Positions 15,049-41,471 of a stretch of 41,482 bases of DNA are shown one piece after another. Within the stretch, counting starts at the first letter, position 1; each line of letters opens with the position of its first letter. The position numbers and the translations under genes are program-made. The notes beneath the pieces are model-generated. The model made no database searches and was not told the origin of the DNA. It saw only the letters and a list, made by a program, of their open reading frames with translations. The stretch spans positions 1 through 41,482 of the forward strand of contig JBMNNN010000002.1 in the NCBI GenBank assembly GCA_050942555.1, given 5' to 3'. The stretch comes from Christensenellales bacterium. GTDB lineage: Bacteria > Bacillota > Clostridia > Christensenellales > UMGS416.

Positions 15049-15060
15049 GTTAAAATAAAA

Positions 15061-15091: not shown

Positions 15092-15103
15092 TGAGCGCTT
15101 CGA

Positions 15104-25807: not shown

Positions 25808-26129
25808 ATCCGCTCTGGGATTAGCCCGCAAGGCCGGAAAGTGTCTGGCGGGAACCGAAATCTGCCGCAAGGCGATCCGCGGCCGCAAAGCCTGTCTGGT
25901 TCTCCTGGACGCGACCACGGGCAAATCGACGCGCGAAAGCATTGAGGCGCTGGCGCGGACCCATGCGATTCCGCTGCGGGTTCTGGACGAATCGATCCGG
26001 CTGGAAAACGCGCTGGGCAAGCCCAACGCCAAGGTTGCAGTCATAACGGATCCCGGTTTTTTAAAGATTTTTGGCGGAGCCGATCAATCAAGCAAGGTCA
26101 AATCCCACGGGGGTGCGGAGAAGGAATGA
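25794..26129 (+). CDS. ylxQ: L7Ae-family RNA-binding protein YlxQ
   Basis: LGLARKAGKCLAGTEICRKAIRGRKACLVLLDATT is characteristic, and the position between ylxR and infB is conserved. Confidence 0.8.
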   Translation: MNATESALGLARKAGKCLAGTEICRKAIRGRKACLVLLDATTGKSTRESIEALARTHAIPLRVLDESIRLENALGKPNAKVAVITDPGFLKIFGGADQSSKVKSHGGAEKE

Positions 26130-28894
26130 GTAAAACGAACGTACACAAGATAGCCGAAGACCTCTACGCTGCTTCAGCCAGCCTGGCCGAGAAGGTTCGG
26201 GGGGACCGTCTCGCGCTGCAGAGCCATCTGAATATGTTGCGCGATCTGGAGACCCGCATCAGGGCGCATATCAGGGAGGAGCAGATCCGGCAGCGCGCCG
26301 CTGCGGAGGCGGAGGCCGCCGCAAGGGCAGCGGAGGAAGCGCTTCAGGCTGCCGCCGCGCAGGAGCAGGAGCCTGACAAGCCGGTCGAAACTGCCGCGAT
26401 ACACGATGCGCCGCAGAAAGAAGCGGAGCTCGGGCAGACCGCCGTACAGGATCCGGCTGCTCCCAAAGAGGATAAGGCGCAGCGGAAATCCGAGCAAGCA
26501 GCGGAGGCGCCCCCCACTCATGAAGCGGAAGCAAAACCCGTTCCTTCCGAGCCCCAGCAACCCGTGGCCAGAGATGAACTGAAGCTTCCAGAGAGCGAGC
26601 AGCTCTCGAAAGACGCAGAGGCGCAGCGCAAAACGGGCGCCCCACCCGCAGCGCGTACGCAGCGCCGCGAAGGAGCCCCCCGCCCGTCGAGCACGCCCGG
26701 CGCATATTCTACGGAAAGAGCGGCGCAGCCCGGAGGCGGACGCAGATCCGCGCCTTTGCCCCGCGCGGCTGGTGCCCAGGCTTCCCGCCGGGAGGGATTT
26801 GCAACACGCGCACCGGGCCAGACGCAGCCGCCCCGCGGACCGCGTACCGGCGCGGCGGCAGGTCGACCGCGACCCGGCGGATCGGGCCGTACGACCGATC
26901 CGCTTAATTTAAGGAAGCTCACAAAGGAGCTTGCGCCCGTACAGGAAAAGGAAAGGGCCAGCAACTATAATCCCAACAAAAAGGCGTACGCCCGTGATAA
27001 GGATATCACGTCGGCCAGGGCAAGGAAGAATAAAAAGCAGCTGATGCGCGAGCAGGCGCCATTCTTCAATGATGAAGAGATCCGCTTCCGCAAGAAGCGC
27101 CGCAGACAGCAGCAGATACGGGGCATCGAGAAAAAGGTGATCGAACATGCCGTCATCAGTACCGAGATGGTGTCTATTAAGGCGCTGTCCGAGAAAATCG
27201 GCGTGCCAGCCGCTGAAATCATTAAAAAGCTGCTTCTCTTGGGGACGATCGCCACTATCAACCAGGAGATCGACTTCGACACGGCGGTACTTATTGCCGG
27301 TGAGTTCAATGTGACGCTGGAACAGAAGCTCGAAAAGACATACGAAGAAGTCATGATGGACAGCTTTATCGACGAGGACGAGAGCGGGCTTGTCGAGCGG
27401 CCGCCTGTCGTGACGATCATGGGACATGTCGACCACGGAAAGACCTCGCTGCTCGACGTATTACGCCAGAGCCGCGTGGCTGAAACCGAGGCCGGTGGTA
27501 TCACGCAGCATATCGGCGCGTACATGATCAACGTGGACGGTAAGGCTATCACGTTCCTCGATACGCCGGGTCACGAGGCATTCACGGCCATGCGCTCCCG
27601 CGGGGCGCAGGTAACCGATATTGCGGTTCTTGTGGTGGCGGCCAACGATGGCGTCAAACCCCAGACCATCGAGGCGATCAACCACGCCAGGGCCGCAAAG
27701 GTTCCCATCATCGCGGCCATTAACAAGATGGATCTTCCGGCGGCCGACGCCGACCGCGTCAGGCGGGAACTGATGGAACATGGCCTCGTACCCGAGGAAT
27801 GGGGCGGCGACAACATGATGGTCGAGGTCTCCGCGCACACTGGGATGGGCATAGACAAGCTGCTGGAAAGCATACTGCTGTTGGCTGAAATCGAGGATCT
27901 GACGGCCAATCCCGATGCGCGGGCTACCGGCACCGTCATCGAAGCCAAGCTCGACCGCGGACGCGGCCCGGTAGCGACTGTGATCATAAGTAATGGCACG
28001 CTGCGTATCGGAGACACGGTCGTGGCGGGAACCACCAGCGGGCGCATCCGGGACATGCTCGACGAATCGGGCAACCATGTCGAGGAGGCCACTCCTTCGA
28101 TGCCCGTGGAAATCGTCGGATTCTCTCAGGTGCCCGAGGCTGGCGACATACTGTACACCGCGGAGGGCGACAGATTGGCCCGCCGTGTCGCGCAGGAGCG
28201 GGAGGAGAGAATCAAGGTCGAGCGCATGAAGGCGGCCTCCAAGGTCACGCTGGACGATCTGTTCTCGAAGATAGCCGAGGATGAAATAAAGACCATCAAC
28301 ATCATCGTCCGCGGCGATGTACAGGGATCGGTCGAGGCAGTCAAGCAGGCTCTGGAGAAGCTTTCCACCGATGAGGTAAAAATTCAGTGCATCCATGATG
28401 GAGTAGGCGCGATCACCGAGAATGACGTCATGCTGGCATCGGCATCCGACGCGATCATCATCGGATTCAATGTCCGTCCCGACGCGAACGGTCGGGAAGC
28501 GGCGGATCGTGAAAAGGTGGATGTCCGCCTTTACCGGATCATATACAATGCCATCGAGGATATGCAAAAAGCGATCAGGGGGATGCTGGCTCCGGAAATC
28601 ATGGAGACGGTGCTAGGTCACGCCCAGGTCCGCGATGTATTCCACATAACGGGAGTAGGTACGGTCGCGGGCGGGTATGTCACCGACGGAGTCATACGCC
28701 GGAACGCGAAAGTGCGCATACTGCGCGACAGCGTGGTCATTCACGAGGGTATGCTATCATCGCTTAAGCGATTCAAGGATGATGTGCGCGAAGTAGCATC
28801 GGGCTATGAGTGCGGAATTGGCGTGAGCGGGTTCAATGACATCAAGCAGGATGATGTCATCGAGGCCTACATCATGGAAGAAATCCAAAGATAA
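26126..28894 (+). CDS. infB: translation initiation factor IF-2
   Basis: The G domain shows [20 protein letters not shown] and NKMD. The N-terminal region is long and Ala/Glu/Pro/Arg-rich. ATGA overlap with ylxQ. Confidence 0.95.
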
Positions 28895-28909
28895 AGGGGT
28901 TGTTGCCCA

Positions 28910-29284
28910 ATGGCGGGTCACCGTACAGACCGATTGGCGGAGGAGATCAAGCGCCTGGTCAGCGCCATCCTGCGCGACGAGCTCAAGGATCCCGATATAC
29001 CGGCGATGACCAGCGTGCTCACGGTGGATGTGACCCGTGATCTGCGGTATGCAAAGGTGCGGGTCAGCGTGATGGGCAGCCAGGAAGAGCAGGAGAAGGC
29101 GATCCGGGCGCTTACGCGCTCACAGGGCTATGTCCGCCATCTGGTTTCGGATCAATTGACCGTACGCTATATTCCCGAAATCGTGTTCGAGCTGGATCAG
29201 TCCATTTCTCACAGCATTCGGGTCAGCCAGATACTCAGCGACCTGAAGAAAAGTGAAAATGAAAAGCAACCTTCCGATACCTGA
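28910..29284 (+). CDS. rbfA: ribosome-binding factor A
   Basis: RLAEEIKRLVSAILRDELKDP...TVDVTRDLRYAKV is characteristic. Confidence 0.9.
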   Translation: MAGHRTDRLAEEIKRLVSAILRDELKDPDIPAMTSVLTVDVTRDLRYAKVRVSVMGSQEEQEKAIRALTRSQGYVRHLVSDQLTVRYIPEIVFELDQSISHSIRVSQILSDLKKSENEKQPSDT

Positions 29285-30227
29285 CGCGATAGCCGCCGAG
29301 CTTGCCCGTGCCGATGCGGTGCGCATCATACTTCACAGAGCGCCCGACGGCGACACGCTGGGCTCGTGTCTGGCTCTGTATCTGGCGCTGTGCGCGCTGG
29401 GGAAGAACGTCGCACTGTATTGCGCCGATCCGGTTCCGGCGCAGTATTCGTTCTTGCCGGGAGCCAACCGGATCGAAAACCGTTTCAGCCCGTCTGCGCT
29501 GCTGGTCACGGTGGACTGCGCGGACGTATCGATGACCGGCGGGGCCGCGGAAGCTATCGAGGGCGGCGCGCCCTGTATCGTCATCGATCATCACCGGTCG
29601 AACCGGGGATACGGTACCTTAAACTGGATAGACTACGCTGCCGCCGCCGCGGCCGAGCTCGTCTACGATTTGCTCCGGCGCATGTCGCTGCCCATCACGC
29701 CCGATATCGCCGACTGCCTGTATGTGGGCCTCGTGACCGACACCGGCCGCTTCAGCTTTGACTACACGCGCTCCGCATCGATGCGCATCGCGGCCGATCT
29801 CATCGAGCGGGGAGCGCACTTCACAGAGCTGTGCCACCGAATATTCCGGCAGCGCTCACTGGCGAAAACGCGGCTCATCGGGGCGGCGCTGTCCTCACTT
29901 CGGGTCGAGTCGGAACCGCGCGTAGCCGTGATGACAATTACGCTCGACATGCTGTCCCGCTGCAGCGCGTCCCACGAAGACACCGAGGCCATCATCAACT
30001 ATGGCATTGAAATCGACGGCATCGAGGTCGCGGTATTGCTGCATCAGTTATCCGAGTCGGAGTATAAGGTGAGCTTTCGCTCCGCGGGCGATGTACGGGT
30101 GGATACGGCTGCCCAGTCTTTGGGGGGAGGGGGCCATGTCAAGGCATCCGGGTGCACACTATCAGGCTCGGCCGAGGAGATACTCGGGACGGTACTCCGG
30201 GCGATTCGGGAGCACGCATACCGCTGA
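29253..30227 (+). CDS. nrnA: DHH/DHHA1 phosphoesterase NrnA (oligoribonuclease / pAp phosphatase)
   Basis: HRAPDGDTLGS, VIDHH and GGGGH motifs are present. The start is GTG 29253 or ATG 29259, inside the rbfA 3' end. Confidence 0.85.
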   Translation: MKMKSNLPIPDAIAAELARADAVRIILHRAPDGDTLGSCLALYLALCALGKNVALYCADPVPAQYSFLPGANRIENRFSPSALLVTVDCADVSMTGGAAEAIEGGAPCIVIDHHRSNRGYGTLNWIDYAAAAAAELVYDLLRRMSLPITPDIADCLYVGLVTDTGRFSFDYTRSASMRIAADLIERGAHFTELCHRIFRQRSLAKTRLIGAALSSLRVESEPRVAVMTITLDMLSRCSASHEDTEAIINYGIEIDGIEVAVLLHQLSESEYKVSFRSAGDVRVDTAAQSLGGGGHVKASGCTLSGSAEEILGTVLRAIREHAYR

Positions 30228-31114
30228 TGGACGGGATCATCAATCTCATAAAAGCCCCCGGCATGACATCAAGCGATGCGGTGGTGTGCGCCCGCAGGAT
30301 ACTGGGTGAGCGCAGGATCGGCCACGCCGGAACGCTGGACCGCGCGGCGGCTGGCGTTTTGCCGCTGCTTGTCGGCAAAGCCACGCGGCTCTTTGACGAG
30401 GTGACGCGCAAGCGCAAGACGTACGTAGCTGAATTCACGTTCGGGATTGAAACCGATACGCTGGATGGGGAAGGGTCGGTCGTCGCGCACGGCGAGCAGG
30501 TGGGAGCGGACGCGCTTCTGGCCGTGTTGCCCGGTTTTCTGGGAGACATCGCGCAGAGACCGCCCATATACTCCGCCGTCAAGCACGAAGGCGCGCGGGC
30601 ATCCGACCATGCGCGGGCGGGGCGCGTTCCCGAGCTGGCCGAGCGACGGGTAACGATCCATGCGCTCAGGCTGCTCCGGCAAACCGCGCCGGGCGCTTAT
30701 CTCTTTGAGATTGCATGCTCAAAGGGGACCTACATACGTAGCCTGTGCCGGGACATCGCCCGCGCGGTTCACACCTGTGGCTATGTGTCCTACCTTGTTC
30801 GTACGCAGGTCGGCCCCTACCTTCTGGAGGACGCGATCACCGTCGATGAACTTGAGACGGTATGGCGGGGCAGCCCTGCTGCCATTCTGCGGCCGATGGA
30901 CGAGCCGCTTGCGCATCTGCCGTCCCTCCGGCTGGATGCGGCGCGGGAAAGAGCCATACTGAACGGGCGGGACGTAGACGTAGAATCGGACGGCGAAGGC
31001 AGGGTGCGCCTGTACGGAGCAGACGGGCTCTTTATCGGCGTGGGCGCGCTCAAGCGCGGCCGGAACCGGATGACCGTCCGGATCAAAATCAATCTGGAGC
31101 ATACGCATCGATGA
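30227..31114 (+). CDS. truB: tRNA pseudouridine(55) synthase TruB
   Basis: MDGIINLIKAPGMTSSDAV...GHAGTLDRAAAGVLPLLVGKATR includes the catalytic Asp motif. The ATG at 30227 shares one base with the nrnA stop. Confidence 0.9.
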   Translation: MDGIINLIKAPGMTSSDAVVCARRILGERRIGHAGTLDRAAAGVLPLLVGKATRLFDEVTRKRKTYVAEFTFGIETDTLDGEGSVVAHGEQVGADALLAVLPGFLGDIAQRPPIYSAVKHEGARASDHARAGRVPELAERRVTIHALRLLRQTAPGAYLFEIACSKGTYIRSLCRDIARAVHTCGYVSYLVRTQVGPYLLEDAITVDELETVWRGSPAAILRPMDEPLAHLPSLRLDAARERAILNGRDVDVESDGEGRVRLYGADGLFIGVGALKRGRNRMTVRIKINLEHTHR

Positions 31115-32061
31115 AGTATTGGACCAGGATCCCAGTTATTGCAGAGCCGGTGGTCATGACCATCGGGAATTTCGACGGAATCCATATCGGGCACAGGGCC
31201 CTTCTTGACCGCGTCGGGGAGATAGCCCGCCAAAGTAAAAGCATACCGGCGGTCGTCACATTTGCAAACCACTCGCTGGAGCTCATCGATCCGCCCAGAG
31301 CGCCCAGGCTTCTCATGGACGCCGGTGACAAGATGGCTGTCATGGCCGACGCAGGGGCCGCGCACATGATCGTGCTGCCTTTCGACACGGCGCTCGCGTC
31401 AATGGAGCCCGATGCGTTTATCGGGCTTCTATTGGAGTCCATTTGCGTGATGCATATCGTCGTCGGTTTTGATTTTCGCTTCGGCCGGGGCGGGGCAGGA
31501 GAGGGGACAACGCTGGCACGTATCGGCGCCGCCCGGGGATTCGGAGTTACGGTGATGCCGCCCGTCCTTTACGAGGACAAGCCGGTATCGAGCTCCCGCA
31601 TCCGTTCCGCGCTGCTCGCGGGAGACTGCGCGTCTGCGGCCGCGATGCTGGGCCGTCCCTATGCGCTCCGGGGAACGGTCGTATCCGGTCATGGGATCGG
31701 CAGGAAGCTCGGATATCCCACTGCCAATATCCGGTACCCCGATGGCCTGCTGGTCCCGCGCAGCGGCGTGTATGCCGCCAAGGTACAGGCCCGTGGCCGG
31801 TGGTATGCGGCGATGGTCAATATCGGGACGCGCCCCACCGCGCGCGAGTGCGGCGGAGAGATATCCATCGAGGCGCATCTCCTTCACTATGAGGGTTCGC
31901 TGTACGGCGAAAAGGTCTGCCTGATGCTGCTGGAGCGGATCCGGGACGAGCGGCCCTTCGAGAGCTGGGACGCGCTCAGAAAGCAGCTTGACGACGACCG
32001 GGAGCAGGTGCTTAACAGGCTGCGCGTATTAAAGCAATTGCCGAAGGCCTGTCACTTGTAA
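31111..32061 (+). CDS. ribF: bifunctional riboflavin kinase / FAD synthetase
   Basis: GNFDGIHIGH is followed by a C-terminal riboflavin kinase region (GYPTANI...EAHLL). ATGA overlap with truB. Confidence 0.9.
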   Translation: MKYWTRIPVIAEPVVMTIGNFDGIHIGHRALLDRVGEIARQSKSIPAVVTFANHSLELIDPPRAPRLLMDAGDKMAVMADAGAAHMIVLPFDTALASMEPDAFIGLLLESICVMHIVVGFDFRFGRGGAGEGTTLARIGAARGFGVTVMPPVLYEDKPVSSSRIRSALLAGDCASAAAMLGRPYALRGTVVSGHGIGRKLGYPTANIRYPDGLLVPRSGVYAAKVQARGRWYAAMVNIGTRPTARECGGEISIEAHLLHYEGSLYGEKVCLMLLERIRDERPFESWDALRKQLDDDREQVLNRLRVLKQLPKACHL

Positions 32062-32219: not shown

Positions 32220-32295
32220 GCCAATATAGCTCAGTTGGTAGAGCAGCGGTTTCGTAAACCGCAGGTCAAGGGTTCGAGTCCCTTTATTGGCTCCA
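32220..32295 (+). tRNA. tRNA-Thr (anticodon CGT), CCA encoded
   Basis: Manual cloverleaf fold: acceptor GCCAATA/TATTGGC, D arm GCTC-AGTTGGTA-GAGC, anticodon arm GCGGT-TTCGTAA-ACCGC, T arm AAGGG-TTCGAGT-CCCTT, discriminator T plus CCA. Confidence 0.9.
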
Positions 32296-32300
32296 CTTTT

Positions 32301-32377
32301 CGAGGTGTGGCTCAGCTTGGTAGAGCGCTGCGTTCGGGACGCAGAGGTCGCTGGTTCAAATCCAGTCACCTCGACCA
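32301..32377 (+). tRNA. tRNA-Pro (anticodon CGG), CCA encoded
   Basis: Manual cloverleaf fold: acceptor CGAGGTG/CACCTCG, anticodon arm CTGCG-TTCGGGA-CGCAG, T arm GCTGG-TTCAAAT-CCAGT, discriminator A plus CCA. Confidence 0.9.
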
Positions 32378-33110
32378 TTGATACACACAATCCCGGGGCC
32401 GGGAGCAGGAAAGGACGGATCATCAATCCGGTAGTAGATGGTCACGTCCTCATCGTTTATGACCACCTTTTCAATAAACCGGAGAATGACCTTCTGCTGG
32501 GCCGCGCCGCCCTTGTCTAGTGCCGTGGACTGGTGGAGCAGGTATTCGATCAACTTTTCCCGCGTAGCCAGGTCCAGATTCGAGGATTTGCTTTCCATCT
32601 CGTCAAGCTCTTCCTTGAGCGCGTCTTTGCGATGTCGGTATCCAAGCGGCGGCACACCTCCGTTGTGCCGTGCCTTTAGTGCGTTTTCCGTCAACCCCTT
32701 CTTAACTTCCCGCGCTAGATTCCGGCTGTAGTATTCCGCCATGCCCTCCAGCATGGATGCCATTATAACGGATTCCGGGCTGTCGTCCAGGCGTTCCAGC
32801 ACGGAGATCAATGACACCTCGGCGCGCTTTAGCTTTCGCCGGTATATCGCGCTGTCGTACCGGTCGCGGCTGAACCTGTCGAGTTTGTGGACGATTATCG
32901 CGGAAAACTGCCCGTTTCCCGCGTCCTCGATCATGCGCTGGAACTCCGGGCACTCGTCTGTGCGGGCTGACTGCGCGTGATCGGTGTAAATTTAGTTATT
33001 ACATACCCGTTATCCTGCGCAAACTTATTTATCGCCCGCATTTGGGCGTCAATGCTTTCCTCCCGCTGGGCCTGTGACAAGAAACGAGCGTATGCGACGG
33101 CCTCAATCAC
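32356..33110 (-). pseudogene. large serine recombinase, frameshifted and internally deleted
   Basis: The upstream frame (GTG 33110) reads VIEAVAYARFLSQAQREESIDAQMRAINKFAQDNGYVITK, then stops. The -1 frame continues (I)YTDHAQSARTDECPEFQRMIEDAGNGQFSAIIVHKLDRFSRDRYDS...GGVPPLGY. The shift lies at the AAATTT run, about 32988-32993. After PPLGY the sequence jumps straight to a coiled-coil/C-terminal tail, so the recombinase and zinc-ribbon domains are missing. The ORF tail reads into the tRNA-Pro 3' end. Confidence 0.7.
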
Positions 33111-33205
33111 TCGTCCTTGTCCTTCTTACCTAGGAAAATCCGGCGTATCGGGATTTGGATTAACGCCGCTACTGCCACGATACATAACGCGAACAATATT
33201 TCCAT
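33107..33205 (-). CDS. hypothetical 32-aa hydrophobic peptide
   Basis: It is not in the ORF track because it is too short. The minus strand reads GGGAGGAAATAGC-ATG, giving MEILFALCIVAVAALIQIPIRRIFLGKKDKDE. Its TGA overlaps the recombinase GTG (GTGA). Confidence 0.35.
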   Translation of the reverse strand: MEILFALCIVAVAALIQIPIRRIFLGKKDKDE

Positions 33206-33206
33206 G

Positions 33207-33311
33207 CTATTTCCTCCCTTTCCAGCGCCTCCACAATTTCAAGACGTACTCATGCAGGAAAATTACCGCGACCCAAATTGCACCAAATAGAAGTGTTCCG
33301 ACGAATCCCAT
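33207..33311 (-). CDS. hypothetical 34-aa hydrophobic peptide
   Basis: An internal ATG of the 67-aa track ORF is preceded by AAAAGGGGA, giving MGFVGTLLFGAIWVAVIFLHEYVLKLWRRWKGRK. This is one TM helix plus a basic tail. Confidence 0.35.
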   Translation of the reverse strand: MGFVGTLLFGAIWVAVIFLHEYVLKLWRRWKGRK

Positions 33312-33440
33312 TCCGCTGTCCCCTTTTTGTCCCAATTTATATGTTTGAATTGTCGATTTTTGTGGTTTACTGTAAGCGTAACAAGAAACACTCGTTCGCG
33401 TTATGTGCATACTTGGGGCCGTACTGTTGATTAAGATTTG

Positions 33441-33863
33441 TTACCTTTTCTGGCCGCCATCGTCGCTTTCGGGTTCAGGTTTGGTTCTTAAAATTTTTAG
33501 TAGCCGCAGTGCTTTTGCTGCGTCCTCGAAAAACTTAATATCGTCGGAGGTAATCTCTGCCCCTTTCAGAATTTCCATTTCCGTAATCCCGAGTTTCGTA
33601 ATGGCCTCAGGTAGTTTAGTGTGGGCTTCGTATTGGGGTTTGTTTGTGCGCCCGAGTAAGTAGTCGGTTGTGCAGTGGAAGTAATCGGCGAGTTTCAAGA
33701 TAATCTCATTATTAGGTTCCAAATCGCCCCTTTCATACTTCCCAACAGTTGCAGAAGTAACGCCCAAAACCTGAGCTAATTCAGATTGGGTTAAATTTGC
33801 CCCCCTTCTTAAATTTCGTAAACGTTTATTTACCACAAAAATCTTTCCTTTATTTTGTAACAT
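33441..33863 (-). CDS. XRE-family helix-turn-helix transcriptional regulator
   Basis: NKRLRNLRRGANLTQSELAQVLGVTSATVGKYERGDLEPNNEIILKLADYFHCTTDYLLG is a classic HTH_3 domain. The ATG is at 33863. An alternative GTG at 33836 is preceded by AAAGGAAAG. Confidence 0.8.
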   Translation of the reverse strand: MLQNKGKIFVVNKRLRNLRRGANLTQSELAQVLGVTSATVGKYERGDLEPNNEIILKLADYFHCTTDYLLGRTNKPQYEAHTKLPEAITKLGITEMEILKGAEITSDDIKFFEDAAKALRLLKILRTKPEPESDDGGQKR

Positions 33864-34096
33864 ACTATAATATACATTCAGTCCATTATAGACTTTAATA
33901 ATCCATGTCGGACAGAAACGATCCAGAACGGATACAATCAATACAGCGTATCCATGACATCAACGAATTATACCATAGCTAACAAGGACGGTCAATAATT
34001 TGGAGGAAATATTATAGAATTTATTACATAAAGTTGCAGGCCGCTATAACAGCTACGAATGTTCTTCACCGCACTCTAACGACGGCAATCAATGAC

Positions 34097-34132
34097 TAAA
34101 AAACAGCGCGCTTAAAAAGTGCGCTGTTTTTG
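34097..34132. terminator. bidirectional rho-independent terminator closing the CotH/VTC operon
   Basis: AAAAACAGCGC-(11-nt loop)-GCGCTGTTTTT with A/T runs on both sides. It lies about 115 nt downstream of the CE4 stop on the minus strand. Confidence 0.7.
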
Positions 34133-34249: not shown

Positions 34250-35074
34250 TTAATCAAGCAGACACGAATAAGTGCACACCTGAAATTTGTCCTCGTTGGC
34301 GTGCAGATATTCGATAAGCGCCTCGAGCTTTTCAGGCGAATAGGACATCTGCGCCCCGTCGTCGGTCTCGTCTATCTTGTGCAGGTTAAGAAGCACCGCC
34401 GGCTCGCCGCCGATATAGGCCATTAGTTCCGCCTGCGCGCTCTCGACGGACTTATCGGTCAGCAAGTGTATGGTCTTTACGGGTAAATAATACGACCTGT
34501 TATTGCGAAGCATGAGTACATTGTCCGAGGTGCGGATACTACGGAAGCCTTTTTCGATGAGCAGCGGTATGAGATAGGGGTTGCACTCCCCATATGGGGT
34601 AATGACCATGTCCATGCCCGCTGTCAGGTAATGCGTATCCAGCCATTCCCTTGCCCGCATAAACTCATAGAGCATCTCCTCGCAGCGAAAGTACATGTCC
34701 TCCTTATGGGAGTATGAGTGATTCAGTATATCCCATCCCTCCAAATACAGCTCAGCCAGCTGCTCATAGGACAGGTATTCGCTCTCGCGGACCAATGCGG
34801 GAATGACGGCGATGCTGCCCCTGTACCCATAACGCTTAAGGAGCGGGTATGCGCTTGTATACACCGAGCTCCAGCCGTCGTCAAACATGAACACGACCTG
34901 CGTTCGGGTCTCATCGACGGCGCATGAGGGAATGTCCCCGTGGGAAATATTGCTGAGCCGCAGCATCGTGATTGCGGTTTTAGCGCCGCTGTACAGGCGG
35001 GTATACGTCTCTGGATACATGAGCAGCGCGAAGCAAACCGCCGCCAGCGCGAAAGCGTAGTAGAGCTTTTTCAT
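34250..35074 (-). CDS. membrane-anchored polysaccharide deacetylase (CE4 / NodB homology domain)
   Basis: N-terminal TM anchor, then NodB motifs MFDDGW and LNHSYSH. The ATG at 35074 (MKKLYY) follows AGGAG. The track ORF starts at the GTG at 35083. Confidence 0.85.
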   Translation of the reverse strand: MKKLYYAFALAAVCFALLMYPETYTRLYSGAKTAITMLRLSNISHGDIPSCAVDETRTQVVFMFDDGWSSVYTSAYPLLKRYGYRGSIAVIPALVRESEYLSYEQLAELYLEGWDILNHSYSHKEDMYFRCEEMLYEFMRAREWLDTHYLTAGMDMVITPYGECNPYLIPLLIEKGFRSIRTSDNVLMLRNNRSYYLPVKTIHLLTDKSVESAQAELMAYIGGEPAVLLNLHKIDETDDGAQMSYSPEKLEALIEYLHANEDKFQVCTYSCLLD

Positions 35075-35094
35075 TACGCACACTCCTATTTCTT

Positions 35095-37479
35095 CTATGG
35101 TATGTCGGGCTCAAAGACCGCGCGCAGCTTCAATGCTGACGTCAGATTGATGTCGAGCCTTTCGCTTTTCGAAGTAACCGCGCCCATCCATCCGGCAAAA
35201 CGATAGCCCTGCGCCGGAATCGCTTCCAGCGATACGGCTATGTCCGGGAAGTACAGGCCCGAAAACGGCAGGTCTTCGTCCTCCAGCAGAAGCGTATTGA
35301 GACGGACGGAGCCTTTTCCGGTAACGGAAACTTCGAGCCTCTGCATGTCTGAGAGCTTGAAATACTCCTTTATATAGCCGCGCATGACGTCGGTTCGTTT
35401 CTGCGCATACAGCCGCACCCGGTCGATTTCGGAGAGATATCTGTCCATACTCCCGCGGTGCAGATTCCATCTTGCCAGATGCTGCGGCACGTAGGGCAGA
35501 TATATGCTGAGCAGCGAATCAAGCTTCGCCTGGGCGGTTTCGGCGCTGTAGGAGGTATTCAGAAGGTCTGCAAATCTGGTTATGAACCAGGTCCTGAAAT
35601 CTTCGTTTGTCAGCATCGTTCGCAGCATCATGGTAAATTCATCGGTGTTGTACCACTGGTCGCTTCCTATCGCAGTCGCGTCGGCCAGCGAGTTTTCCTC
35701 ATAGCTTTTATAAAAGAGGCCGAACCCGGTATCCAGATCATACACCAGCCAACGCCACCTTCCGTCCTGTCCGTAAGGCGCCTGCGGCTCGTACATTTGC
35801 GTGCGCTTCCTCCATATGCGCACGTTGTTCGCGAGCCAATCGCGGTTGCCGCAATAGATCTGCAAAATGTTGTATTCGATGTAGTTATCAATATCGATCT
35901 GCGTTTTTACATACTCGTAGTTCTCCGGCTTGCGCATATCCACGTTTTTTATGAAAGTGAATAGTTTATTGAATGGGAACTCGTCTCCGGCAAAGCCTTC
36001 CTGCACCTCGTCGCCGATACTGCCCGTCGGGTTTTTTATGATCACCACGTCAGCGGCGTCAAAACCGTATTTGCGCGCGAGATAGTCGGCGCTGTACTGC
36101 GGACGGATGTTATAGATGCCGTAGTATTCGCCATTGATAAAGGCGATGCAGGGACAGGAGGACTGCAGATCGAGCTTTCCGGGATCGGCCAGGCTCTGGA
36201 TATAGGCGTCGCGAAACAGGGAATAATGCGCATCGGTAGCCGAATTCCTGAGTATCAGGCGGCTTAATGGGAAACGATCGGCCTCTGAGGGAAAGAAGTC
36301 GTACTCGAATACGTCGCGATCGTCATAGTCGGTATTCGCCCGGAGGCTCAGGCATTTATTGGGATGGTCGAGCGAATAGCCGCCATGGGTACGGATACCG
36401 ATATCCTGGGATATCCACAGCCTTCCTTCGGGATCAAACAGCTCCATATGCGCGGGGCGCTCCCACAGTTTGCCTTCCTGATTGTAGTTCGCGGGTAGTC
36501 CCATCATGCCCGCGGTCTCGGGGTGTAGTGTAAGCCAGTCATCCCGTACCTTTCCGGCTACATATATTCCGGTTTCGTAATCAAACAGGTTGGCTGGAGA
36601 GGTCGAAAGAGAAACGACGGGGATATCGTACCGCCCGGATATGCCCTGGTCTACAAAATAGGTTTTCGTAACGGTCTTGCTCGCGGGATAGCCGGATTTA
36701 AAGGTACGGGCGCGGACGACATAGGGCGCCGCGCGCTTATTGAGGAGCAATGGTCTCTTGTAACGCGCGGAATCCTTATTGGGCTCGGAACCGTCGAGGG
36801 TATAGCGGATTTCCGCGCCTTCCTCACAGAAAAGCTCCAGCGCCAGATCGCTCTCATAGAATCCGGCAGGCAGGCTGAATCCGGGCCCGGATAGACGCTG
36901 CCCCTGCCTGCCGTCGTTCAGCGGATCGCCTTTATTGCTGCTGCCCGCTGTGCAGCCGTCGAACCAATACAGGCTGTCGCTCCCGTCGGGCATCCGGCCG
37001 TACGATATATTTTCGTGCATGTTCCGGAAAGGCAGCACCGTGCGCCACGCGCGGGCGGGCGAGGTCAGCAGCACCACATTGTCGTTTTTGCTCAGCCTGA
37101 AATTCGCGTGCGCGCTTTTTTCGTCTATCAGCCTGTCCTTGCCCGATGTCCACACCGTTATATAGCCGTATGGCTCGATCTTAATATCGGGGAACACCCA
37201 CCGGAAAGGTTTCTGCGCGTCGTCCGACAGACCGAATCCCCTGAGATTCACCGTTTTGTCCGAGGCATTATATAGCTCCACAAAACCCGAAAACCCGCCG
37301 TCGCTCGACTGTATCAGGCCCCTGTTGAGCGGCATGACCTCGTTTATCACGATACCGAAGTGTTCGCGCGACGCTGCGGCCGAATGGACAGCAAAAAGAT
37401 CGTCGGCTAATCCGGTGGAAAGAGCTATCCCCAAACAGACCGCCACAAAGAGCACGCGCTTTAAACGCTTCCTCAACAT
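35095..37479 (-). CDS. secreted CotH-family kinase with N-terminal lamin-tail (LTD) domain and accessory beta-rich domains
   Basis: A signal peptide is present (MLRKRLKRVLFVAVCLGIALSTG). The LTD-like segment is IVINEVMP...GFVELYNASDKTVNLRGFGLSDD. A chitobiase-C-like segment is GAEIRYTLDGSEPNKDS. A long CotH-like core includes LRNSATDAHYSLFRDAY. The C-terminal segment GYRFAGW resembles an InlB B-repeat. Confidence 0.75.
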   Translation of the reverse strand: MLRKRLKRVLFVAVCLGIALSTGLADDLFAVHSAAASREHFGIVINEVMPLNRGLIQSSDGGFSGFVELYNASDKTVNLRGFGLSDDAQKPFRWVFPDIKIEPYGYITVWTSGKDRLIDEKSAHANFRLSKNDNVVLLTSPARAWRTVLPFRNMHENISYGRMPDGSDSLYWFDGCTAGSSNKGDPLNDGRQGQRLSGPGFSLPAGFYESDLALELFCEEGAEIRYTLDGSEPNKDSARYKRPLLLNKRAAPYVVRARTFKSGYPASKTVTKTYFVDQGISGRYDIPVVSLSTSPANLFDYETGIYVAGKVRDDWLTLHPETAGMMGLPANYNQEGKLWERPAHMELFDPEGRLWISQDIGIRTHGGYSLDHPNKCLSLRANTDYDDRDVFEYDFFPSEADRFPLSRLILRNSATDAHYSLFRDAYIQSLADPGKLDLQSSCPCIAFINGEYYGIYNIRPQYSADYLARKYGFDAADVVIIKNPTGSIGDEVQEGFAGDEFPFNKLFTFIKNVDMRKPENYEYVKTQIDIDNYIEYNILQIYCGNRDWLANNVRIWRKRTQMYEPQAPYGQDGRWRWLVYDLDTGFGLFYKSYEENSLADATAIGSDQWYNTDEFTMMLRTMLTNEDFRTWFITRFADLLNTSYSAETAQAKLDSLLSIYLPYVPQHLARWNLHRGSMDRYLSEIDRVRLYAQKRTDVMRGYIKEYFKLSDMQRLEVSVTGKGSVRLNTLLLEDEDLPFSGLYFPDIAVSLEAIPAQGYRFAGWMGAVTSKSERLDINLTSALKLRAVFEPDIP

Positions 37480-37491
37480 CGATACCCCCGC

Positions 37492-38165
37492 CTAGCCGGT
37501 TACCTCGCCCGAGAAGGAAACTATGTTCACTTCGCTGACGCCTATCTCGCTGTTGCCCGAAAAGAACTCTACCAGTACGTACGGGCGGTGCTTTTTCAGG
37601 TAGACCTCGTATGTCATCTCCATCGAGTCGAAGCTGCTGCTGTGCATGCGTAGCTTGTGTTTTATGCCGAACTTCCTGAGCGCGTCCTCGGCGGCCTGCT
37701 GGCGTATGCTGCCGCCCCTGAGCACCAGAAGGTAGCAGCAGTCGGAAAAGACCGCCTTGCTGAACAGGAACAGGAAAACGGCGATGAATATACTGCCCAC
37801 GACTGCGATCAGGAAAGCGCCCGTTCCCGCCGAAAGCCCCACGCTGATCGCCCAAAAAAGGAAGGTGAGATCACGGGGTTCCTTGATCGCGCTGCGGAAG
37901 CGTACGATGGAAGCGCGCCGACCATGCCCAGAGAAATGGCCAGATTGCTTCCTATCAGCATGATAACCATGGCGGTGATCATCGCGACGGCTACGATGGA
38001 GACATTAAAGCCCAGCGAATACAGCACCCCGGTGAATGTCTTTTTGTATACGAAAAAGATAAACATACCAAGGAGCGTGGTGACAGCCATATTAAGCGCG
38101 ATGGTTTCCAGCGTATATACGCTTGCGCCGTCTACGAGATAACGAAAAAGATCGACATCGTTCAT
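37492..38165 (-). pseudogene. DUF4956-family polytopic membrane protein, split by a 1-nt frameshift
   Basis: Track ORFs 37809-38165 and 37492-37842 are the two halves. Shifting frame at about 37909-37913 (plus-strand GGAAG, where GGAAAG would restore the frame) gives a continuous ...NLAISLGMVGAL-SIVRFRSAIKEPRDLTFLFWAISVGLSAGTGAFLIAVV..., which matches the family core. RBS AGGAGG precedes the ATG at 38165. Confidence 0.7.
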
Positions 38166-38178
38166 CCTTCTTATCCTC

Positions 38179-38889
38179 CTAAATATGTATTGACTGCCGG
38201 CATATACTGTATTTGCTGATCGAAGTAACCGGCAGGCTCACTACGGAAAGAATCCTGCTTATGAAAACAGGGATTGCGTTGCGGTACTTTACCTCCAGAA
38301 TACAGCGGGCATCGCGCATCGCGTTTATGGAGGGTACGCTTTTATCAAAAAGGCGCGCGGTATCCGCGGATGCCCGCAAATCCCTGTCGATCGTGATGCG
38401 TATATTTTCAAAGGGCAGCTCGAAGGCCTGCCGCTTATAGTCGATGAGAAGGATCGGCCTTAGCTGCTCCAGATGGAAGAGAGTATAGAATTTACCGGCC
38501 GCGCCGTGCGAAACCGGCGGGAGAAAGGCGCAGTCGTTCCTGCTGAGCCTGATGGCGTCCTGTCTGCCCAGCGGCATGCTCTCCTTGCACACGTACGCGC
38601 CCCGTTTGCACTTGTGCTCGAGCATCGCGACATCTGTGTCGGTATCGTAGATGCGCAGGCGAATCTTCCTGCGCTCGGAATAGCCGTTCAGCTTGTCGTA
38701 ATAGTCGCGGTTGCCGGGCGTATCGAAATACAGGCTTCGGATCCAGTACTGTCCGTCCGGCCCGGCATGCCTGTCCACGCGCATTACCCGCCGGAAATAC
38801 TGTGCGAGCATATATGCCTCGCGCTCGCTTATATAGCATTTGCATTCATGCCGGTATACCTCAGATCCCTTCTTTGTACGCTCAAGCAT
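38179..38889 (-). CDS. VTC-domain protein (polyphosphate polymerase / triphosphate-tunnel fold)
   Basis: YRHECKCYI, IRSLYFDT, RRKIRLRIY, LEHKCK, IDYKRQAF, IRITIDRDL and ILEVKY are present. This is the alternating charged beta-strand pattern of the CYTH/VTC tunnel. RBS AGGGAG is present. Confidence 0.7.
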   Translation of the reverse strand: MLERTKKGSEVYRHECKCYISEREAYMLAQYFRRVMRVDRHAGPDGQYWIRSLYFDTPGNRDYYDKLNGYSERRKIRLRIYDTDTDVAMLEHKCKRGAYVCKESMPLGRQDAIRLSRNDCAFLPPVSHGAAGKFYTLFHLEQLRPILLIDYKRQAFELPFENIRITIDRDLRASADTARLFDKSVPSINAMRDARCILEVKYRNAIPVFISRILSVVSLPVTSISKYSICRQSIHI

Positions 38890-38907
38890 AACCGGTACTC
38901 CCTGCCT

Positions 38908-40251
38908 TCATGACAGTGTATATTCATTGTTAGTCCTGCTCAGCTTATCCCAGTGCGTTCTTTTCATCAGGTATGAGGCGGTGCCCTTAATAAAATAGCT
39001 GATCCGCAGAAAGCTGAATACGACAAGGTCCATGAACGCACCCAGATATAGCGGACTCGTTTTGCTCCTCAGGCGGTATCGATCCGCGGCATCCTGCGTC
39101 ACGCGAAAGAAATGCGGACCCCGTTCAGCGGCTCTGTGTATCGCCACCAGCGAATTTATGATATTAAACAGCACCGCAAGCCCGGAAAATACGATGAAAA
39201 GCGGCGCGATGCCGACATATAAGCGTATGGCGAGCAGCAGGCAGTTGGTAAGGAAAATCATGACGGCCATGGTGCTGCTGAAACTCGCATCTGCAATCAT
39301 GAGAAAGCATACGCTGGTTCGGAAGAATTGCTTCAATAGAAAATGCCTGTTGTGCACGACCGCATCCCAAAATGCTTTCTGCCACCGAACGCGCTGCCGT
39401 CTGAGATCCTTCCAGGTCTGCGGGCACTCGGTATAGCATATCGCGTCCATCGTATAGGAAATTACCTTCTTGTGTTTTTTCGCGTATGCCTGCAGGCGTA
39501 TCGTGATATCGATATCCTCGCCAAGACCGTTCCTGAACCCGCCCACTTCGATCAGCGCGGTTTTTCTGAATACGCCGAACGCGCCTGAAATAATATTGAG
39601 CGCATTGTTCACCGACAGCGAGGGCTTGTATATATAAAACCCCTTGATATAGTCGAGCGCCTGCAGCGCGATGATCGGGGACATCCCCCTATCCATCAGG
39701 AAATACTGCATCACATGGATTGCGCCGCCCGAGGCTATGACTTCCTCGTCCTGAAAAACGCAGTTCATAATGTGCAGCGCGTTTTTTTCCAGTACGCTGT
39801 CTCCGTCGAGCGTTACGATAATTTCACCGCGACTCAGCGCGATTCCCGCGTTCAGGCTGTCTGCCTTGCCGGTGTTGGGCTTATCTATCACATATATGTT
39901 CGAGTACTTTGCCGAGCGGTACGTCTGACCGTTCTCAGCGCTGTGAAAGTCCCCCCGCTTCCTGATAAAGGGCTTAAGCCTGAGCAACCGCTTAAGAATT
40001 GTCATGGTGTTGTCGGTGGAGCCATCGTTCACGAATATCGTTTCAAAGCTCTCATAATCGAGGCGCAAGACGCCCTTTAGCGTGTTCCTGAGTATCGGAG
40101 CCTCATTAAAGCAGGGTATGACGAGCGTAAAGCGCAGCATTTTTCGCGGTGTACGTTCCGGCTCCTTTCGATAATAAAAGGAGCATATGAAATGGAGTAT
40201 CGCAAAAAACGTGCTCAGAAACGTACATGCGGTAACAAAGGCAATGATCAT
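38908..40251 (-). CDS. processive family-2 glycosyltransferase (PgaC/IcaA/chitin-cellulose-synthase-like)
   Basis: VIPCFNE, VNDGSTD, TLDGDS, GEDIDIT and QRVRWQ (QxxRW) are present, with N- and C-terminal TM helices. The start is placed at the ATG at 40251 (MIIAFV), forming an ATGA overlap with the GH16 stop. The track ORF is open from 40284. Confidence 0.85.
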   Translation of the reverse strand: MIIAFVTACTFLSTFFAILHFICSFYYRKEPERTPRKMLRFTLVIPCFNEAPILRNTLKGVLRLDYESFETIFVNDGSTDNTMTILKRLLRLKPFIRKRGDFHSAENGQTYRSAKYSNIYVIDKPNTGKADSLNAGIALSRGEIIVTLDGDSVLEKNALHIMNCVFQDEEVIASGGAIHVMQYFLMDRGMSPIIALQALDYIKGFYIYKPSLSVNNALNIISGAFGVFRKTALIEVGGFRNGLGEDIDITIRLQAYAKKHKKVISYTMDAICYTECPQTWKDLRRQRVRWQKAFWDAVVHNRHFLLKQFFRTSVCFLMIADASFSSTMAVMIFLTNCLLLAIRLYVGIAPLFIVFSGLAVLFNIINSLVAIHRAAERGPHFFRVTQDAADRYRLRSKTSPLYLGAFMDLVVFSFLRISYFIKGTASYLMKRTHWDKLSRTNNEYTLS

Positions 40252-41123
40252 CGCAGCTGGCTCCATTCCGGCTCGATGGTCCATGACTCTATCGTAAAGG
40301 TCGCGGGAAATACTGTAGTTTTATCGGGAAGTCCAGGCCATGTGCCTCCCAGCGCCTGGTTGACGATGAGATACATCGGTTCGCTGGGAACGTATTTGGA
40401 GCTCTCAAGCATGCACTTTCCGTCAATGAACCAGCGCAGGCATTCCCGGGTCCATTCGAGTTCGATCAAATATGTATCCTTCTTTTCTACCTTCGTTTTG
40501 AAGTAATCGCGCTTCTGCACCGGGCCGTCCATATAGTGCACTACGCCATAGAACACGTCGGGCGCGCGGCCTATCATCTCGTATATATCAATTTCGGGTA
40601 AGGCTTTGTTCTCCACAGGCAGGAGCCAGATGGCGGGGAAGAGGCCCTTTCCCTTCGAAACGCTTATGACAAAGGAAAACCTGCCATACAGGAAAGCGCT
40701 CTCGCTTTCCACCATCCCCGAGGTGTAGCGCTTATCGCCCATTATTTCTTCTCTTGTCGTTATGACGATGCGCCCTTCATCAAGCGCAACGTTGCCCGGA
40801 CTATAATACTGAAGCTGACCGTCGAAGCTGTCGCTGCGCTCGATGATCCGCCATTGCGAAGCGATGGAAGGCGCTGAGGCGGACGGCTGGGCGCTGCTTG
40901 CTTTGCTTTGAGCCGGAGCGGGCCTGCCGGGCGGCCTGGTTACAGCGGTGTGCAGCCCGCCGCTTCGTGCAGTTGACGGGGAGTGGGCCTGTGCAGAGCT
41001 GTTCTGGTGCGCGGCGCGCTCCGATTTGATCGCGCCGATGCTTTCAATAATATAAAAGTAAAACACGCCGCAAAAAGCAAGCGCGCATATAGATATCATC
41101 AGGCATCTTAAGAATCTTTTCAT
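40248..41123 (-). CDS. membrane-anchored glycoside hydrolase family 16 protein
   Basis: N-terminal TM helix and a Ser/Ala/Pro-rich linker. The catalytic motif is PEIDIYE (ExDxxE), and the GH16 jelly-roll segment includes FPAIWLLP. Confidence 0.8.
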   Translation of the reverse strand: MKRFLRCLMISICALAFCGVFYFYIIESIGAIKSERAAHQNSSAQAHSPSTARSGGLHTAVTRPPGRPAPAQSKASSAQPSASAPSIASQWRIIERSDSFDGQLQYYSPGNVALDEGRIVITTREEIMGDKRYTSGMVESESAFLYGRFSFVISVSKGKGLFPAIWLLPVENKALPEIDIYEMIGRAPDVFYGVVHYMDGPVQKRDYFKTKVEKKDTYLIELEWTRECLRWFIDGKCMLESSKYVPSEPMYLIVNQALGGTWPGLPDKTTVFPATFTIESWTIEPEWSQLR

Positions 41124-41158: not shown

Positions 41159-41186
41159 ATTATTCATAGCGGAATATTCTTGTGAA
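41159..41186 (-). promoter_or_regulatory. weak candidate sigma-A promoter for the GH16-led operon
   Basis: The minus strand reads TTCACA-N16-AATAAT, about 35 nt upstream of the GH16 ATG. Confidence 0.25.
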
Positions 41187-41439: not shown

Positions 41440-41471
41440 GAGCCTCCCGCCCCCGCGGGGGCGGGAGGCTC
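41440..41471. repeat. perfect GC-rich inverted repeat at the window edge
   Basis: GAGCCTCCCGCCCCC-GC-GGGGGCGGGAGGCTC, with 13-15 bp arms, followed by GAAAAAAGG. There is no U tract 3' of the stem on either strand. Confidence 0.6.

Follow-up and report, generated by a model that had tools for sequence, protein, structure and literature searches.

A VTC-DUF4956-CotH trio within a GH16-GT2-CE4 exopolysaccharide operon of Clostridia, and a probably decaying copy in a Christensenellales bacterium

Background

Genes for a VTC-type polyphosphate polymerase domain, a DUF4956 membrane protein and a CotH-like kinase have been reported in the company of two kinds of bacterial polysaccharide locus. In Gram-positive bacteria, cotH, poly-phosphate polymerase, DUF4956 and DUF4832 genes are accessory genes contiguous with pel operons (Whitfield et al. 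2020, PMC7112168), and the necrotic-enteritis-associated locus NELoc-2 of Clostridium perfringens includes two VTC genes, two DUF4956 genes (annotated as tubulin/FtsZ), a CotH gene, a HEAT gene, a family-2 glycosyltransferase (GT2) gene annotated as 'chitin synthase' and a deacetylase gene (Lepp et al. 2010, PMC2879425; PMC11677781). The present analysis concerns the same trio in a six-gene cassette, GH16-GT2-VTC-DUF4956-CotH-CE4, found in a 41,482-nucleotide stretch of DNA from a Christensenellales bacterium (contig JBMNNN010000002.1 of assembly GCA_050942555.1), the whole of which is referred to below as the window. The occurrence of the trio beside Pel and NELoc-2 polysaccharide loci is already known; the six-gene form, with its GH16 glycoside hydrolase, GT2 and CE4-fold deacetylase-like protein, differs from those.

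Genetic data for the trio were published in 2025 for Streptococcus intermedius (SIR_1591-1594). Deletion of the DUF4956 homologue resulted in more Pel and deletion of the CotH homologue in less, and both deletions lowered aggregation by over half in one medium, although they did not abolish it; Pel also affected persistence of infection (PMC12345266). These phenotypes show a trio that modulates a synthase-made polymer without being essential for it. The same authors did not find the three-gene synteny outside Pel loci (PMC12345266). A reading of the window from its letters alone (the sequence-only reading) had supposed that no such bacterial system had been characterised, which does not hold: the CotH, polyphosphate polymerase and DUF4956 set is described beside the deacetylated N-acetylhexosamine (HexNAc) Pel locus (PMC7112168), deletions have been tested (PMC12345266) and NELoc-2 has a near-identical gene set (PMC2879425, PMC11677781).

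The account favoured here, with a probability of about 0.6, is that of a two-module cassette in which the trio is an accessory element and of which the window carries a decaying copy. On this account, a self-contained trio entered a self-contained GH16-GT2-CE4 exopolysaccharide operon, between its GT2 and CE4 genes, and so gave rise to the six-gene cassette of Clostridia and related Bacillota.

Distribution and modular structure of the cassette

The VTC family is large: of 1.84 billion cluster representatives at 50% identity, 7,170 belong to it at E <= 1e-10. When each GTDB species was scanned through one of its genomes, at least 594 VTC places were confirmed, of which the best 80 loci were taken with 10-kb flanks. 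DUF4956 is present in 75 of these 80 loci and CotH in 70, nearly always contiguous with VTC; the counts follow from 76/81 and 71/81 once the Logan contig of the window itself (L001) is taken out. Those loci whose VTC proteins are most similar have exactly the order GH16-GT2-VTC-DUF4956-CotH-CE4, and a census from the GT2 side brought in additional cassettes. Altogether, 17 species genomes have all six genes in this order, with six more cut by contig ends and two, L123 and L125, degraded, and the adjacency proposed from the window is thus conserved and not a one-off.

The six-gene carriers belong to Pelethousia, Oscillospiraceae, Tissierellales and Lutisporaceae, and VTC identity to the window falls as low as 37% among them. 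Four are cultured, namely Alkaliphilus hydrothermalis, Anaeromonas frigoriresistens, Dethiothermospora halolimnae and Clostridium malenominatum. The genes that flank the cassette vary from genome to genome. Two genomes, Pelethousia CA_100 (L077, L002) and the metagenome-assembled genome (MAG) SRR1562007_bin.12 (L058, L108), were seen to have both a six-gene cassette and a separate CotH-VTC-DUF4956 trio.

The polysaccharide part also occurs by itself. Six GH16-GT2-CE4 loci lack the trio (L127-L131 and L134; e.g. L128, 7089-10171), with GT2 proteins 36-38% identical to that of the window, and one of them is in a Burkholderiales MAG; a literature search for a description of this trio-less operon found none. 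A single MAG (L082) has VTC-DUF4956-CotH-CE4 without GH16 and GT2, and the next gene is a GGDEF diguanylate cyclase (14811-16001), which hints at control of that variant by cyclic di-GMP (c-di-GMP). Outside the cassette clade, the immediate neighbours of the trio (n=67) are heterogeneous and include 7 ABC transporters, 3 GT2, 3 GT1 and 2 DUF4832 proteins, and one Lachnospiraceae trio lies within a large glycosyltransferase/aminotransferase/ABC glycan locus.

A related arrangement is found on a Planococcus plasmid, where a VTC-DUF4956-CotH cassette includes a GT2 that shares 35% identity with the window GT2 (E 4e-50). A plasmid search with the window VTC returned two plasmids only, so the cassette is not typically plasmid-borne. 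The best plasmid match for GT2, a Paenibacillus record, is unannotated and was not used.

On these comparisons, the simplest reading is that the cassette consists of two autonomous modules, and that the trio was probably inserted once, between GT2 and CE4. At least four polysaccharide systems have taken up the trio (Pel, NELoc-2-type and ABC-type loci, and the GH16-GT2-CE4 operon), and the census contradicts the claimed absence of the trio synteny outside Pel loci.

The trio part of the cassette has been damaged independently in other lineages. In a Lutisporaceae MAG (L123, 9291-10068), a deletion fuses VTC at about residue 162 to CE4 at about residue 167. Another MAG (L125, 9512-9862) retains only a VTC remnant, and in the isolate Dethiothermospora halolimnae SD1 (L014, 11414-13834) CotH is split into two open reading frames (ORFs).

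Frameshift in DUF4956 and decay of the window copy

In 17/17 complete cassettes, DUF4956 is encoded by one uninterrupted ORF of about 220-236 codons. In the window it is divided between two ORFs that overlap in different frames, 37809-38165 (118 aa) and 37492-37842 (116 aa), and Pfam matches neither of them. A DNA alignment with four orthologues traces this to the loss of one nucleotide from the Leu85 codon, between 37912 and 37911, where a short T run is altered by a single base (CTTTCC to CTTCC). When the one base is restored, a 224-aa protein results that matches PF16316 (39.1 bits, cut-off 30.6) and is 83% identical to its best intact relatives. The frameshift also deprives both halves of an invariant family segment, S-I-x-R-F-R-x-A-x-K-x-P-x-D.

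The same deletion is found in 12/12 metagenome contigs (L085-L096) from twelve different runs or samples in the Logan and JGI collections, which are 99.6-99.97% identical to the window in nucleotide sequence. An inactivating frameshift in DUF4956 is fixed in this lineage. A break of one base in a short T run might be taken for an assembly or sequencing artefact, or for a site that programmed frameshifting bypasses, with the gene really intact. That the identical deletion recurs in contigs from 12 separate runs or samples, and that no intact, 100% identical protein exists among 5.8 billion clusters, where the best intact relative is the 83% one, makes such an explanation extremely improbable. 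Programmed frameshifting or slippage was rejected as well: the break has neither an X XXY YYZ slippery heptamer nor a long homopolymer, which makes recoding there unlikely.

Six further distinct frameshift alleles are found among the 12 contigs, two of them in GT2 and four in CotH. Those in GT2 are 1-nt indels at 39788 and at 39135, the latter in three samples. The CotH indels are at 36870 (1 nt), 36836 (7 nt), 36109 (4 nt, in two samples) and 35814 (2 nt). Given the fixed DUF4956 frameshift and the GT2 and CotH frameshifts of sister strains, the cassette is most likely non-functional and decaying in this organism. The sequence-only reading had described six same-strand ORFs forming one operon; GH16, GT2, VTC, CotH and CE4 are indeed intact on the minus strand of the window, but DUF4956 is split into two ORFs by a 1-nt deletion, and it is frameshifted in every population sampled.

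Several observations weigh against decay. Of the six additional frameshift alleles, four were each seen once, in short metagenome contigs, and an A7 run is the site of one. The strains differ by 20 single-nucleotide polymorphisms (SNPs), of which 13 are synonymous and 7 non-synonymous, a ratio that gives no sign of relaxed selection and appears uninformative or even suggestive of past constraint; the argument for decay is drawn from the fixed DUF4956 break and the excess of frameshift alleles, not from the SNP spectrum. Finally, the five other cassette genes of the window are full length with intact catalytic motifs, so this copy may retain a partial function.

The VTC tunnel protein

The VTC protein of the window matches PF09359 over profile positions 2-234 of 235 (129.6 bits, cut-off 23, E 1.8e-37), and a profile of 28 sequences finds yeast Vtc4 (3g3q) in the PDB at E 5e-9. 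Its AlphaFold2 model has a pLDDT of 90.3, and the first 13 Foldseek ranks are taken by the tunnel domains of Vtc4, Vtc3 and Vtc2 (E 5e-14 to 2e-9, TMq about 0.7), with ygiF and CYTH proteins following from E 3e-8. The expected structural likeness to Vtc4 is therefore confirmed by both routes. No SPX domain was found by Pfam, and no convincing transmembrane (TM) segment is present.

Thirteen positions are invariant in 28 homologues: R13, K17, R77, R79, E91, K93, K102, Y151, R153, R164, E199, K201 and K226. The Vtc4 tunnel residues, which we take to be K200, R264, R266, K281, Y359, R361, R373, E426 and K458 and which reportedly come from the work of Hothorn et al. in 2009, pair in a HMMER alignment to 3g3q and 5iiq with K17, R77, R79, K93, Y151, R153, R164, E199 and K226, respectively. 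The residues expected of a catalytic tunnel are thus kept.

Longer forms of the protein exist. Among the best 150 representative matches, 31 (within P0250-P0362) have N-terminal extensions of 80-390 residues, counted to the start of the VTC match, which are hydrophilic, rich in Lys, Glu, Pro and Ala, and contain neither a Pfam domain nor a TM segment; the window protein has no such extension. These extensions were considered as informative domains and set aside, 31/32 being hydrophilic and of low complexity.

CotH and DUF4956

The CotH protein matches PF08757 at 135.4 bits (cut-off 23.8). A single-sequence search of the PDB gave no match; a profile of 20 homologues finds Bacillus cereus CotH (5jd9) at E 1.4e-9, which bears out the anticipated relationship to Bacillus CotH. 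Residues N545, D547 (in GNRDWLANN), N552 and D581 (in YDLD) are invariant in 20/20 homologues. In Bacillus subtilis CotH, mutation of D228 or D251, the catalytic and the metal-binding Asp, inactivates the kinase (PMC7821199). D547 corresponds to D228 and D581 to D251, the latter pairing being derived from motif spacing rather than from a structural overlay, and the catalytic Asp residues are accordingly kept in the window protein.

The accessory domains of CotH are LTD, Fn3_assoc/CHB_HEX_C_1 and an InlB-B-repeat-like domain (Flg_new_2). Because a hydrophobic signal or anchor at aa 6-24 precedes these extracellular-type domains, CotH is placed outside the cytoplasm. A natural fusion from a metagenome (P0372; L137, 2438-5145) consists of a signal-bearing CotH, a hydrophobic helix (FWVLIIILGMVITPLILIVIYG), basic residues and VTC, and is followed by the start of a DUF4956-like gene. 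This architecture fits an arrangement in which CotH would lie outside and VTC inside at one membrane site. A C-terminal TM anchor is present in 0/58 CotH proteins of the census loci, so the fusion is not a common architecture.

For DUF4956, a model of the orthologue P0125 (pLDDT 76) has 5-6 helices followed by a C-terminal beta-alpha-beta-beta-alpha-beta domain that matches ACT domains in a fold search (TMt 0.70-0.74). Weak Pfam MgtC matches occur in 24/35 members of the family (best E 6e-5). This MgtC-like and ACT-like picture agrees with the description of the S. intermedius homologue.

GT2, GH16 and CE4

The GT2 protein matches Glycos_transf_2 at 85 bits and contains the motifs NDGS, DGD, GED and QRVRW, all invariant in 12 relatives; of its hydrophobic segments, one is N-terminal and about three or four are C-terminal. 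Its best NCBIfam model is PgaC_IcaA (TIGR03937), at 141 bits against a cut-off of 422, and it is 27.5% identical to Escherichia coli PgaC. GH16 scores 62.3 bits with PF00722 (cut-off 22) and has the catalytic motif EIDIYE (aa 177-182), which is kept in the cassette orthologues, behind a hydrophobic segment (aa 8-26) and a Ser/Ala/Pro-rich linker. The closest solved enzymes are laminarinases and beta-1,3-glucanases (3azx, E 3e-22).

CE4 matches PF01522 at 57 bits, with NCBIfam scores of 28.7 against 321.9 for PgaB and 16.7 against 248 for IcaB. When compared with the canonical motifs (TFDDG, H(S/T)xxH, RxPY, DxxDW and LxH), the window protein has FDDG, HSYSH and LNLH; it lacks the Arg of motif 3 (TPYG) and has a conserved RTSDN in place of motif 4. 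All of the catalytic motifs named by the sequence-only reading for GH16, GT2 and CE4 are present, and all six of its family assignments hold, five of them far above gathering thresholds and DUF4956 only after repair.

The canonical CE4 residues are degenerate in 9/16 six-gene cassettes, where the metal-binding Asp is lost in 7/16 and the catalytic His in 9/16, and they are intact in 5/5 trio-less GH16-GT2-CE4 operons examined. The CE4 proteins of six-gene cassettes have new conserved motifs of their own, RTSDN and PYGE.NPY. In this comparison of 16 cassettes with five trio-less operons, loss of the predicted catalytic residues is confined to cassettes that have the trio. The six-gene system is thus not one in which de-acetylation is always to be expected.

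These results bear on the product. The sequence-only reading had envisaged a working operon in this organism whose product is a cationic HexNAc polymer, de-N-acetylated in part, accompanied by exported polyphosphate, a phosphorylated matrix or both. The operon-like layout with its terminator, the CE4 motifs FDDG, HSYSH and LxH, the retained catalytic residues of VTC and CotH, and a GT2 that is closest to PgaC/IcaA among named families would all be expected of such a system. However, DUF4956 is frameshifted, with its invariant motif lost, in 12/12 sampled populations, and sister strains add frameshifts in GT2 and CotH; GT2 and CE4 fall far below the equivalog cut-offs of the poly-N-acetylglucosamine (PNAG) systems; among solved structures, GH16 is related to beta-1,3-glucanases and not to hydrolases of PNAG or chitosan; 9 of 16 cassettes have lost catalytic residues of CE4; and polyphosphate export is without evidence in any such system. 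A working operon of this kind is accordingly judged quite unlikely here, and the cationic polymer is only one option for the product. The earlier interpretation was right that the coupling of these genes is real and conserved, and it overstated the intactness of the window copy, the novelty of the system and the chemistry of the product.

A possible role for the trio

The favoured account, a two-module cassette with an accessory trio, would operate as follows where the cassette is intact. From what is known of the families, the membrane GT2 would polymerise and extrude a beta-linked glycan, the anchored GH16 would trim or remodel it outside the cell, and the CE4-fold protein would de-acetylate it or, in many lineages, perhaps only bind it. 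More tentatively, the soluble VTC protein would act at the cytoplasmic face together with DUF4956, most likely making polyphosphate from ATP, and the secreted CotH may phosphorylate a target at the surface, which could be the polymer itself or a protein associated with it. Phosphorylation by CotH could then tune the amount of polymer that is made or retained. A link between the VTC and CotH activities is proposed just as tentatively, and a hand-over of polyphosphate to the outside would be its least secure step.

A more specific scheme is a supply line, in which VTC makes polyphosphate, DUF4956 passes it across the membrane and CotH draws on it, instead of on ATP, for the phosphorylation of a glycan or wall component outside the cell. 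A carbohydrate substrate may be hinted at by the CHB_HEX_C/Fn3_assoc domains of CotH. If the scheme were true, phosphorylation would partly replace de-acetylation as the route by which the polymer of the six-gene cassette is charged, and this would explain why CE4 residues are eroded only where the trio is present. As a complete chain of steps, the supply line is regarded as unlikely.

Against the favoured account stand several results that concern the trio itself. Deletion of VTC in S. intermedius had no reported effect (PMC12345266), and the opposite changes in Pel upon deletion of DUF4956 and CotH, together with that lack of a VTC phenotype, are more easily reconciled with a regulatory circuit than with a simple supply line. 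The membrane part of the P0125 model had no solved match in the fold search, yeast VTC channel chains included. Only one CotH-TM-VTC fusion is known from the searches, and its gene is interrupted by 10 Ns in the scaffold. In literature searches, no biochemical characterisation of a bacterial VTC or DUF4956 was found; every functional step assigned to the trio, that of the secreted CotH included, is inferred.

The trio could instead be a regulatory or signalling device, in which DUF4956 and VTC sense or adjust the phosphate and energy state, polyphosphate, if made, stays inside, and CotH phosphorylates proteins, such as the Ser-rich linker of GH16 or the CE4-like protein, the trio thereby setting synthase output or polymer retention. 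The S. intermedius phenotypes, opposite for DUF4956 and CotH and silent for VTC (PMC12345266), agree with this, as do the ACT-like C-terminal domain of DUF4956, the distant MgtC similarity of its family, the fact that most trios stand alone with no dedicated glycan synthase adjoining, and the identity of the characterised CotH as a protein Ser kinase (PMC7821199). Yet the trio has been recruited repeatedly to differing polysaccharide loci (Pel, NELoc-2-type, GH16-GT2-CE4 and ABC-type), its CotH bears the carbohydrate-enzyme-associated domains CHB_HEX_C_1/Fn3_assoc, and a device of this kind would supply no extracellular phosphoryl donor, which a secreted kinase needs. On balance, a purely regulatory trio is a tentative possibility and is not preferred to the accessory, polymer-modulating trio described above.

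A spore-surface system was also considered, with CotH taking part, as in Bacillus, in coat or exosporium assembly and the glycan module decorating spores. Several carriers belong to groups that include endospore formers. The Alkaliphilus hydrothermalis cassette is about 4 kb from spoVA genes, and CotH was defined as a spore-coat kinase (PMC7821199). However, a transposase separates that cassette from the spoVA genes, and flanks vary between genomes; the window CotH has an N-terminal signal or anchor, unlike the mother-cell coat CotH; the trio also works in non-sporulating streptococci; and no sporulation-sigma promoter was evident upstream on inspection by eye. A role at the spore surface therefore appears very unlikely.

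Genomic features of the window

The coordinates of the cassette genes and neighbouring features are given in Table 1. From GH16 to CE4, the gaps between cassette genes are -4, 18, 13, 12 and 11-20 nt, the first of these being an ATGA overlap of the GT2 start codon with the GH16 stop codon. The mechanical ORF start of CE4 is an upstream GTG at 35083. At each of these junctions there is a purine-rich stretch resembling a ribosome-binding site, and GH16, CotH and CE4 have one N-terminal hydrophobic segment each. The terminator hairpin has a minimum free energy of -22.7 kcal/mol on the minus strand and -28.3 kcal/mol on the plus strand. The short gaps, ATGA overlap, ribosome-binding-site-like stretches and bidirectional terminator noticed on first inspection are all borne out by the sequence and the folds. 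An Rfam search of the whole window, along with a permissive search of the approximately 300-nt GH16 leader, detected two tRNAs only, and no c-di-GMP or other riboswitch.

Table 1. Positions of the cassette genes and of associated features in the window
Feature	Position	Strand	Basis or remarks
GH16 glycoside hydrolase	40248-41123	minus	Pfam PF00722
Processive family-2 glycosyltransferase GT2	38908-40251	minus	Pfam Glycos_transf_2
VTC-type triphosphate tunnel protein, 236 aa, soluble	38179-38889	minus	Pfam PF09359; putative polyphosphate polymerase domain
DUF4956 pseudogene (MgtC-like membrane + ACT-like domain)	37492-38165	minus	PF16316 after repair
CotH kinase-like multidomain protein, secreted/anchored, 794 aa	35095-37479	minus	Pfam CotH (PF08757)
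CE4-fold polysaccharide deacetylase-like protein, N-terminal anchor	34250-35074	minus	Pfam PF01522; likely ATG at 35074 after AGGAG
Candidate sigma-70-like promoter, TTCACA-16-AATAAT	41159-41186	minus	About 35 nt upstream of GH16 start; consensus scan 10/12, pattern match only
Bidirectional intrinsic terminator, A5/GC-rich stem/T6	34098-34131	both	About 118 nt past CE4 stop
XRE-family helix-turn-helix regulator gene	33441-33941	minus	Near-consensus promoter
Truncated serine-recombinase ORF	32356-32934		Resolvase domain positions 55-143 only; overlaps 3' end of tRNA-Pro
tRNA-Pro(CGG)	32301-32377		Ahead of cassette
tRNA-Thr(CGT)	32220-32295		Ahead of cassette

The XRE gene has the promoter TTGACC-17-TATAAT with a TG (33967-33995). 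GC content drops from about 0.60 to 0.43-0.55 on entering the stretch of tRNAs, recombinase and cassette, with 0.43-0.48 at 32220-33995; when composition was weighed as a sign of transfer, the fall was from 0.60 to 0.535. The segment 32220-33995 looks like the leftover of an integrated element adjoining the cassette. Arguing the other way, GC at third codon positions (GC3) is 0.65-0.70 in the cassette and 0.705 in infB, and because of this closeness the compositional support for an island or for transfer is modest, and weak only. No att-type direct repeats of the tRNA-Pro end were found within the window, which stops 359 nt beyond GH16.

The upstream block at 24411-32061 contains housekeeping genes, with nusA, infB, a DHH-family gene, truB and ribF assigned from size and order; ribF is the one gene of this block checked by Pfam, which supports it (FAD_syn and Flavokinase). 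The host is an uncultured member of the Clostridia, and the InfB protein of the window is 82% identical to that of an anaerobic-digester MAG. At the extreme end of the window, a perfect 16+16 GC-rich palindrome (GAGCCTCCCGCCCCCG/CGGGGGCGGGAGGCTC, 41440-41471, -41 kcal/mol) has a T run that is misplaced for termination on the cassette strand, with an A run after it on the plus strand.

Significance

Many genomes of Clostridia keep together the genes for a polyphosphate-polymerase domain of eukaryotic type, a membrane protein resembling MgtC and a secreted CotH kinase. What the present comparison contributes is the recognition of the trio as an autonomous module, the restriction of CE4 catalytic loss to trio-bearing cassettes, the repeated loss or breakage of the trio, that in the window included, and a set of cultured and presumably tractable carriers of intact six-gene cassettes. 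Cultured carrier strains include Alkaliphilus hydrothermalis DSM 25890, Anaeromonas frigoriresistens D2Q-11 and Clostridium malenominatum JCM 1405. Testable questions are raised about polyphosphate synthesis by bacterial VTC proteins, the phosphoryl donor of a secreted kinase and phosphorylation of matrix polymers. Given the tie of NELoc-2 to necrotic-enteritis strains and the effect of Pel on S. intermedius persistence, the answer could bear on virulence and biofilm biology. The window copy itself is mainly useful as a natural example of cassette decay.

Comparison with known systems

With the PNAG systems PgaABCD and IcaADBC, the cassette shares a processive GT2 (D, DxD, (G/T)ED, QxxRW) paired with an extracytoplasmic CE4. 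Both window proteins are far under the equivalog cut-offs (GT2 141 vs 422, CE4 29 vs 322), and the unit contains no small PgaD/IcaD-like partner, its gaps of <=20 nt holding no extra small ORF. A laminarinase-like GH16 stands in place of a PNAG-specific hydrolase such as the C-terminal domain of PgaB, and the trio is inserted.

The yeast VTC complex (3g3q, 7ytj, 8i6v) has the same tunnel fold, with conserved basic, acidic and tyrosine tunnel residues. Unlike the yeast proteins, the window VTC is a 236-aa tunnel domain without SPX and without a fused Vtc1-type TM channel, and its membrane neighbour is the MgtC-like DUF4956, which has no match to the VTC channel. Similarly, the kinase domain of Bacillus CotH (5jd9) is shared, and its catalytic Asp, Asn and metal-binding Asp are conserved. 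The window protein is distinguished by its length of 794 aa, its signal or anchor and its LTD, CHB_HEX_C/Fn3_assoc and InlB-B-like domains, and no CotB/CotG-type substrates are encoded nearby.

NELoc-2 and the Planococcus maritimus plasmid NZ_CP059541 resemble the cassette more closely in gene content, with VTC, DUF4956, CotH, a GT2 of about 470 aa and a polysaccharide deacetylase in one locus and a recombinase nearby. The order there is VTC-DUF4956-CotH-hypothetical (about 685 aa)-HEAT-GT2, without GH16, and the 685-aa, HEAT-repeat, sigma/anti-sigma and duplicated VTC-DUF4956 genes of that type are absent from the window cassette.

The Pel loci differ from the window cassette in the synthase, which in the window is a GT2 instead of PelF (GT4)/PelG/PelD/PelE, and in the hydrolase, which is GH16 and not a DUF4832/TIM-barrel protein; Pfam searches of the six window proteins gave no match to GT4/PelF, PelG, PelD or DUF4832. 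The window trio also lies inside the operon, between GT2 and CE4, and the copy is frameshifted. In both cases, however, the trio combines a CotH that is secreted, a VTC domain that is soluble and a membrane protein in which an MgtC-like part is joined to an ACT domain; it is contiguous with a synthase-dependent exopolysaccharide locus that has a CE4 deacetylase and a dedicated glycoside hydrolase; and its role would be an accessory, non-essential one.

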